Source: Escherichia coli
Lineage (GTDB): Bacteria; Pseudomonadota; Gammaproteobacteria; Enterobacterales; Enterobacteriaceae
Length of the DNA stretch: 12,341 bases
Strand: one strand, 5' to 3'
Assembly: GCF_003334815.1 (NCBI RefSeq)
Contig: NZ_QOWO01000059.1
Under the pieces are notes generated by a model. That model was given only the letters and a program-made list of their open reading frames with translations, searched no databases and was not told the DNA's origin. Shown here piece by piece: positions 1 through 854 of this stretch (position 1 is the stretch's first letter; every line of letters starts with the position of its first letter). The position numbers and the translations under genes were made by a program.

Positions 1-77
1 ATGGCTCATGATGTCCCTCTGGGATGCGCTCCGGATGAATATGATGATCTCATATCAGGAACTTGTTCGCACCTTCC
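1..77 (-). mobile_element. IS5-family insertion sequence, terminal 77 bp (element continues beyond window start)
   Basis: Reverse complement of 1..77 begins ggaaggtgcgaacaag, which I recognise as the IS5-type 16-bp terminal inverted repeat, and ends ATGAGCCAT = Met-Ser-His, matching the InsH transposase N-terminus (MSHQ...) at positions 9..1 on the minus strand. Overall about 80% similar to the IS5 end as I recall it, so IS5-like rather than IS5 itself. Flanking tetranucleotide ttaa (78..81) fits the IS5 YTAR target preference. From memory, not searched. Confidence 0.65.
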
Positions 78-721
78 TTAATTACCGGCCAACCGGAGGT
101 GAAAAACCAACCGCCTTTAGCGTCGCTTCCGGCAGTTTTGAACACCGAAGCTTCTGAATAACCGTCGCTAATAATGTTACGTAAATGTGCTGGTTGCGCA
201 GTGAGTTGCAGATAGCCTTTAGCAACCCCCTCGATACCCTTCTCTTCGCCATAATTAAGAACGTAACTGCCATCAAGCGGGTCTAGCTCAGCCTCAGAGA
301 GCGCTGCAACATAAAAGCCAGCCTGCCCCGTCGCCAGCCAGAATACGGGCAGATTACGGTTCATCACCGCCTGTATTAATTGCGCAACAGGCAACTCAAC
401 TGACTGAGCAAAGTTAGAAAGCGAGATCATACCCTCACCAGCAAGCAGCGGGGCGCAGTCACTTAAAGTTCGATAATCCAATTGTTCATACTCTTGTAAG
501 GTCTGATACCAGACCGCCAACAGGAGCGCGGACTTCTGCTTTGCTTCATGAAGATCGTGAGTGCCTGTTGAAGTGTGAATCTCACACTGTCCTGCGTATC
601 GACGAAAACGTTGGGGAATGCTAATGCGGACAACATAAATGCCGCTGGTTCGACGATAGAGTTTATATCGCTGAGACATCGCCTCGTATACCCTTTTGTA
701 AGAGGGGCTACGCGATTTCAA
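50..721 (-). CDS. leuX-adjacent ORF with tyrosine-integrase-type N-terminal DNA-binding motif, 3' end truncated by IS5-family insertion (likely gene fragment / pseudogene)
   Basis: ORF track 223 aa. The first codon at 719..721 is TTG; a more plausible start is ATG at 677..679 (MSQRYKLYRRTSGIYVVRISIPQRFRR...). The motif YKLYRR-SGIYVVRI-IP resembles the N-terminal arm-type domain of genomic-island tyrosine recombinases (DUF6538-like, from memory). The last 9 codons (EGANKFLI, stop at 50..52) are encoded by the IS terminal repeat (61..77), so the native reading frame is interrupted at 77/78. Position and orientation (immediately 3' of a tRNA, reading away from it) are typical of island integrases. 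The downstream 140 aa do not obviously resemble an integrase core. Confidence 0.45.
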   Translation of the reverse strand: MKSRSPSYKRVYEAMSQRYKLYRRTSGIYVVRISIPQRFRRYAGQCEIHTSTGTHDLHEAKQKSALLLAVWYQTLQEYEQLDYRTLSDCAPLLAGEGMISLSNFAQSVELPVAQLIQAVMNRNLPVFWLATGQAGFYVAALSEAELDPLDGSYVLNYGEEKGIEGVAKGYLQLTAQPAHLRNIISDGYSEASVFKTAGSDAKGGWFFTSGWPVIKEGANKFLI

Positions 722-769
722 GCAAAATTATGGATTAAATTTTTTTAAAACAACGACTTAGATAAGACT

Positions 770-854
770 TGGTGCCGAAGGCCGGACTCGAACCGGCACG
801 TATTTCTACGGTTGATTTTGAATCAACTGCGTCTACCGATTTCGCCACTTCGGC
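770..854 (-). tRNA. leuX: tRNA-Leu (anticodon CAA)
   Basis: Reverse complement of 770..854 reads gccgaagtggcgaaatcggtagacgcagttgattCAAaatcaaccgtagaaatacgtgccggttcgagtccggccttcggcacca: 85 nt, class II tRNA with long variable arm, anticodon CAA, encoded CCA 3' end. Matches my recollection of E. coli leuX exactly. Confidence 0.96.

Follow-up and report, generated by a model that had tools for sequence, protein, structure and literature searches.

Gene content of the window

The stretch of DNA analysed here (the window, 12,341 nucleotides of an Escherichia coli contig) contains a single predicted tRNA gene, leuX, which encodes tRNA-Leu(CAA) and lies intact at 770..854 on the minus strand, as found concordantly by ARAGORN and Rfam (tRNA, 59.4 bits) and by alignment with K-12. 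leuX is an insertion hotspot that has been studied for a long time, and here it is the integration target. The gene is the same as K-12 leuX base for base, and the alignment with K-12 ends exactly at the tRNA 3' end. The last 25 nt of leuX at its 3' end, together with 3 further nt, form the 28-bp att core, ACTTGGTGCCGAAGGCCGGACTCGAACC (767..794, no strand assigned). A sequence search of the window found no copy other than this one, which is proximal to leuX. From the core to the integrase start codon extends an island-side arm (680..766, minus strand), which is also the 3' trailer of leuX. By alignment, this arm equals the sequence of E. coli 300709 except for one SNP at 742, and is unrelated to K-12.

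On the minus strand of the arm we found no terminator-like hairpin for leuX (fold z-score −0.9), and leuX transcripts may run on into the integrase gene. The leuX 3' trailer (680-769, minus strand) is made of island DNA; K-12 instead has GACCTCAGTTGAGGTC and then T7 directly after leuX.

Next to the arm lies the 5' third of the island integrase gene (78..679, minus strand), which begins with ATG at 679 and translates on the minus strand as MSQRYKLYRR... The fragment comprises codons 1-200 plus 2 nt, that is, the DUF6538 domain with some of the linker but no catalytic domain; the cut lies between the second and third bases of codon 201. The reading frame runs on past the cut as a chimeric 209-aa ORF (50..679, minus strand), in which 201 integrase residues are extended by EGANKFLI up to a stop codon, both of these read from the insertion sequence.

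The leftmost bases (1..77, minus strand) are the left end of ISKpn26, a member of the IS5 family: this end has the terminal inverted repeat GGAAGGTGCGAACAAG and the leader, and window positions 3-1 are the start codon of the transposase. Bases 1-77 have no counterpart in E. coli 300709 and are identical over 77 of 77 bases to annotated 'IS5-like element ISKpn26' copies, and this end sequence occurs in 1842 of the 5426 complete E. coli genomes. K-12 IS5 (IS5A) was rejected as the source of bases 1-77, with no match within 3 mismatches. A full 1196-bp ISKpn26 copy is found in contig L006 (482-1677), with the 12-bp terminal inverted repeat GGAAGGTGCGAA at both ends. The IS end in the window is adjoined by TTAA (78..81, no strand assigned), which we read from the sequence as the probable 4-bp target site; this TTAA at the break 77/78 occurs once in the uninterrupted integrase gene. 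The original prediction, made from the letters alone, that the gene beside leuX is disrupted by an insertion sequence is thus borne out by the ISKpn26 end at 77/78.

The remainder of the window consists of the conserved block ahr, yjgR, lptG, lptF, pepA, holC, valS and yjgN, the last of these truncated at 12183 by ISVsa5 (IS10-like, IS4 family), to which the right end (12184-12341) is identical over 158 of 158 bases. With ISKpn26 at 1-77 and ISVsa5 at 12184-12341, the window is an entire short-read contig bounded by repeats, and there is nothing to the left of it because the contig ends inside ISKpn26. Within the conserved block, yjgR directly follows ahr (2070-2150), the idnK-idnDOTR genes (GntII) found beside ahr in K-12 being absent both here and in 300709. 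Rfam also reports, at gathering score, the Ysr276 antisense RNA inside pepA (6827-7021, 175 bits) and two copies of naRNA4 (REP-type) between pepA and holC (7855-8026).

The interrupted integrase

The integrase fragment is a 100% match to an intact 636-aa 'site-specific integrase' of E. coli 300709 (WP_000083138.1), and the window differs from that genome at 1 of the first 923 bases from base 78, and at 4 of the 12,106 bases from 78 to 12183. In the intact homologue, the Pfam matches are DUF6538 (residues 7-63), Phage_integrase (residues 436-582) and Phage_int_SAM_5, and PHROGs assigns the protein to phrog_1 'integrase' (E = 3e-32). The putative catalytic residues of this homologue, identified by eye as R443, H551, R554, H577 and Y588, are all located past the cut. 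The window fragment stops at residue 201, and the R..HxxR..H..Y feature of Phage_integrase (PF00589), present in the intact homologue, is absent from it. Since the IS cut removes the catalytic domain wholly, the element would be unable to excise itself, and, as judged from the sequence, loss of the integrase probably immobilises it for self-excision. A search for relatives of the integrase among solved structures gave only an XerC-like match (E = 0.13), and we found no literature under the name 'DUF6538'.

In K-12, the gene after leuX is the P4-type intB pseudogene of the cryptic prophage PR-Y/KpLE2. With the full-length homologue as BLASTP query, no significant similarity to K-12 IntB was detected (E = 0.22), which indicates that the two integrases are unrelated; the homology to IntB that characterises islands with a P4-type integrase (IntB/KpLE2, PAI II536 type) is therefore lacking. 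It had been anticipated that the gene beside leuX would differ from intB at its N-terminus, and the start MSQRYKLYRR... agrees with this. The K-12 protein itself had been quoted as starting with MSLTDAKIRT, which needs correcting, as the annotated K-12 intB is a pseudogene starting MHLLVHPNGSKYW; the main point is unaffected.

Intact elements in related genomes

The window holds one end of the island, and its other end can be seen in relatives. In 300709, the 25-nt 3' end of leuX is repeated 8.6 kb away in the same orientation, the identical stretch being 28 bp, where 0 occurrences are expected by chance. Taken together, a second exact copy of the core is present 7.3-9.7 kb away in L001, L008, L009, L010, L016 and L017 (0 expected by chance). 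The proposal that the leuX 3' end would be found as a direct repeat thus gave a positive result in the near-identical relatives, at 7.3-8.6 kb. The core-bounded element measures 7.3 kb in three Logan contigs (L008, L009 and L010) and 8.6 kb in 300709, where it includes an additional IS3; its length is 8.7 kb in O157:H7 EC4115, and in DG342 it is 9.7 kb. The leuX-side junction of the window, with its single core copy, is identical to that of these bounded elements.

The integrase heads the 7.3-kb element in 348-360 of the 5426 complete E. coli genomes, the lower figure being the number of genomes in which at least 80% of the element is covered. Carriers include ML35, ATCC 25922 and Nissle 1917, and the flanks in 300709 and ML35 are almost identical to the window. 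The genes of the element are, in order, the integrase, a NIPSNAP gene, an ORF-free stretch of 1 kb, a DUF1643 gene, an invertase-type serine recombinase, genes for a 281-aa protein and a 164-aa membrane protein, and an XRE-type HTH gene. It is from these sequences that we infer that the source genome once held the same 7.3-kb element; the relatives are the ground for this, as the window itself has a single copy of the core and a third of the integrase gene.

The O157:H7 version of the element has 89% DNA identity to it over 72-74% of the length. The intact homologue of the window integrase is 79% identical overall to that of EC4115, the N-terminal 120 residues being nearly identical. The O157 element has been named SpLE5 (ECs5242-ECs5252, S-loop 286 / O-island 172); it lies between tRNA-Leu and the SpLE6 integrase, and lineage II strains cleanly lack it (PMC1890555, PMC8190617). 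The left end of the window is thus the leuX-side junction of a small SpLE5-related element of a kind already described.

On the distal side, EC4115 has the repeat and, beyond it, the leuX terminator hairpin of the K-12 type and a P4-type integrase that is truncated, so that the hairpin is displaced by 8.7 kb from leuX in SpLE5-carrying O157. This arrangement matches integration of SpLE5 into a leuX that already held a P4-type island, that is, tandem accretion. The distal side in 300709 and its relatives is occupied by AbiJ, insertion sequences and the fec operon. The older island past SpLE5 in EC4115 (L016 16209-20696) includes a type II Zorya system and a restriction endonuclease that binds phosphorothioated DNA, and at the equivalent position in the Logan contig L007 there is a type I restriction-modification system.

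The integrase was also observed on a plasmid. The 92-kb, tet(A)-carrying pCP53-92k (L019 7200-9720) has an intact integrase and NIPSNAP gene with 43 nt of the leuX 3' end, adjoining a second tyrosine recombinase and a copy of ISKpn26. As the plasmid sequence includes 18 nt of the tRNA beyond the core, it looks like a captured chromosomal fragment and not attP.

Cargo of the related elements

The cargo in the relatives amounts to six small genes, none of which is in the window. The original prediction saw the island's cargo as the likeliest place near the window for any accessory or undescribed system, an expectation that the relatives do not support, since their six genes are of a described type and match a defence candidate at most weakly and partially. 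PADLOC aligns the 281-aa protein with the first 174 of the 906 positions of the candidate PDC-S60 (E = 3e-26), a weak and partial match, and Pfam matches the same protein weakly to DUF4062. The HTH protein matches controller-type regulators, and the serine recombinase is assigned as a DNA invertase by PHROGs and NCBIfam, below the curated cut-offs. No PADLOC match was obtained for the cargo of O157 SpLE5. A search for prophage or phage-satellite genes with PHROGs returned only the integrase, the DNA invertase, the regulator and two families of unknown function, and no primase, terminase or capsid gene is annotated in the element.

Variants on the same chassis carry, either beside the integrase or in the slot that separates the invertase from the HTH gene, an AbiU-like AIPR protein, PDC-S31 (DUF2971), a PDC-S07-like NUDIX protein or HNH endonucleases. 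These variants include elements at a tRNA-Gly gene beside actS/xdhA (L018, L022, L023 and L024), with an integrase that is 36% identical; the cargo of the tRNA-Gly-inserted copies comprises an AbiU-like AIPR protein, DUF6998, DUF4468 and an AAA ATPase.

The ORF-free kilobase (L008 5445-6449, L016 8953-9955, L017 6812-7813) is unannotated in 586 complete genomes. Like the candidate defence cargo, it lies off the window, and the source genome may lack both. It is 97% identical between variants whose integrases are 79% identical, and a core of about 230 nt is also found in the tRNA-Gly-inserted relatives. A structured RNA was considered and rejected: there was no Rfam match even at E ≤ 1, and the RNAalifold energies over 280 nt were −28 kcal/mol for one strand and −26 kcal/mol for the other, with no clear consensus fold and, from the similarity of these values, no strand preference. 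The block of near-100% identity extends into the DUF1643 gene, and on this account looks like a recombination tract. The kilobase does not derive from the 338-aa gene found in the tRNA-Gly variants, nor from the 171-aa ORF of the plasmid.

It is conceivable, but improbable, that the SpLE5-like elements, the tRNA-Gly relatives included, are compact shuttles in which integrase, serine invertase and HTH regulator surround a swappable slot for candidate anti-phage genes, and in which the ORF-free core would act as a cis site (oriT-like or pac-like), or as an RNA, for a ride on a helper. The slot contents observed so far are the DUF4062/PDC-S60-like protein with the membrane protein, the AbiU-like AIPR protein, PDC-S31 and HNH genes. 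If this proposal were true, and if the cargo outlived the IS event, the window would adjoin an uncharacterised two-gene defence candidate.

Recurrent disruption of the integrase gene and alternative explanations

The same integrase gene is disrupted in other strains. ISEc52 is inserted in the same TTAA region as ISKpn26 in another run, and at about residue 439 in FDAARGOS_1255; ETEC4073 has IS91 together with an internal deletion in the gene, and frameshifted alleles of 198/199 and 431 aa are present in several runs. Loci at which the integrase is seen disrupted in these ways are L013 1-50, L020 1591-4754 and L021 6571-9602. In all of the other disruptions by ISEc52, IS91 and frameshifts the cargo is retained. 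The integrase is thus a repeated target of insertion sequences and frameshifts, which would fix the island in place.

The particular allele of the window is rare. The exact 209-aa chimeric product is on record on 6 contigs, each of which ends tens of bases into the insertion sequence; one is an NCBI contig of 12,335 bp (GCA_965212685.1) that matches the window without a difference over 10,679 bases, and the remaining ones include Logan contigs from separate runs. The ISKpn26/integrase junction is in no complete E. coli genome, and the ISKpn26 allele is limited to a small clone. As both ends of the window lie inside multicopy insertion sequences, which is typical of short-read contigs, one could ask whether the 77/78 junction is a chimeric contig end produced by repeat collapse. 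We regard such an artefact as highly improbable, since the junction and the chimeric ORF recur in independent assemblies made with different pipelines (GCA_965212685.1 and several Logan runs), and the break falls exactly at the IS terminal inverted repeat and TTAA. The use of the same tRNA, and of the same side of it, as in K-12 might also suggest that the island is a mere sequence variant of the K-12 P4-type IntB/KpLE2 island. There is next to no chance of this, given that the protein has no similarity to IntB (E = 0.22), that DNA similarity to K-12 stops at the tRNA 3' end, and that O157 has both integrase types in tandem. The 209-aa DUF6538 protein, for its part, could have been kept for a function of its own, such as that of a DNA-binding regulator at the att site: the ORF keeps the start codon and the entire DUF6538 domain, and split versions of 198-199 aa, annotated 'DUF6538 domain-containing protein', recur in other strains. 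However, the nucleotides are identical to those of the intact gene right up to the insertion sequence, the tail of the ORF is read-through into it, and the truncation points vary among strains, a pattern that indicates random decay and not selection for one product. We consider a retained function very unlikely.

The alternative that deserves most attention concerns the other side of the insertion. We modelled a simple insertion, in which the complementary junction would read ...TTCGCACCTTCC-TTAA-ACCCGATACGC..., that is, the ISKpn26 right end followed by integrase codon 201 onward; the same junction can also be written as ...CTGCTTATTCGCACCTTCC, TTAA and ACCCGATACGCTT... in succession. None of the seven predicted products of this junction (including those of 448, 446, 445, 477, 447 and 462 aa) is on record in an exact-product look-up of a partial index, and a degenerate pattern for both junctions gave 0 matches in the GTDB species-representative genomes and the JGI metagenome contigs. 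The complementary junction being absent from these look-ups, the insertion may not be a simple one, although the negative results are weak because the look-up needs the exact product and reads part of the index. An IS-mediated deletion or inversion could have removed or moved the rest of the integrase and the cargo, leaving just a 0.7-kb island scar at leuX, with nothing noteworthy immediately to the left of the window. In favour of such a rearrangement, the right-hand junction products are unrecorded, whereas the left junction is present on 6 contigs or more, and the 431-aa C-terminal product, which is on record in 14 contigs, is present there as frameshift or ISEc52 variants. The ISKpn26 copy in L006 has unequal flanks (CTAA/CAAG) beside a truncated permease gene, which suggests a deletion, and the IS91-associated internal deletion of ETEC4073 is in this same gene. 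Against it, a single amino-acid difference defeats the exact-product look-ups, which moreover cover part of the index; the cargo is kept in every inspected complete genome with an insertion sequence in the integrase gene; and the junction has a TTAA, in keeping with a simple insertion of an IS5-family element. We take the rearrangement to be a serious possibility, to which we would give roughly one chance in three.

Discussion

Bases 1-854 very probably represent the junction, on the leuX side, of a small SpLE5-related integrative element whose integrase was later cut by ISKpn26. The following mechanism is deduced from the anatomy of the element and from general knowledge of tyrosine recombinases. 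The 636-aa DUF6538 tyrosine recombinase of the element would recombine its 28-bp core with the identical 3' end of leuX. The segment of the tRNA used for integration would be that from the T-loop to the 3' end, which is of the classical tyrosine-recombinase type, and integration would restore the tRNA and leave the second copy of the core at the far end of the element. An island already present at leuX would be pushed outward, giving a tandem array onto which later arrivals would stack. A copy of ISKpn26 would then have transposed into TTAA at integrase codon 201. As a consequence, the DUF6538 N-terminus would stay beside leuX, and everything from residue 202 onward, the putative R443, H551/R554, H577 and Y588 included, would have been separated or lost.

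The original prediction of a different, possibly decaying and immobilised island holds in that the island differs from IntB/KpLE2 and the integrase has lost its catalytic domain, but the island is of a known type, SpLE5. The configuration is ordinary and already known: SpLE5 has been named, annotation of the element exists in hundreds of genomes, and ISKpn26 is common. For an insertion sequence to interrupt an integrase is an ordinary event of E. coli genome plasticity, and no new system is involved. The significance of the finding is mainly one of annotation, in that the leuX hotspot of this lineage holds an SpLE5-type element and not the K-12 IntB island.

Among known systems, the KpLE2/PR-Y island of K-12 shares with the window the tRNA hotspot, and is likewise a decayed island full of insertion sequences. 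It differs in its unrelated integrase, in lacking a further copy of the leuX 3' end over a distance of 46 kb, and in keeping the hairpin terminator directly after leuX, which is displaced in SpLE5-carrying strains. The insertion sequence itself agrees with ISKpn26 in the terminal inverted repeat and in being inserted beside TTAA, although the window holds 77 bases of one end only.

The cargo variants fit the 'integrase-only' islands of unclear mobilisation, and are not a new system. Like the defence-carrying E. coli islands described under that name (Hochhauser et al. 2023, PMC10121019), the elements are small, have an integrase and a recombinase with no other recognisable mobility genes, and carry a variable cargo that includes defence candidates. 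They differ in that leuX is not mentioned for the described islands (PMC10121019) and in that most of the cargo here is without a PADLOC match.

The closest known system is SpLE5 of O157:H7 Sakai. It shares with the element the site at the leuX 3' end, the 25-28 bp repeats, and the gene order of integrase, NIPSNAP, ORF-free kilobase, DUF1643, serine recombinase, cargo and HTH regulator. The cargo slot differs, with a 438-aa and a 257-aa protein in O157, whereas the relatives of the window have the DUF4062-like 281-aa protein and the 164-aa membrane protein. The integrase linker (residues about 120-210) has diverged between the two, and in the window the integrase is, in addition, cut by ISKpn26.
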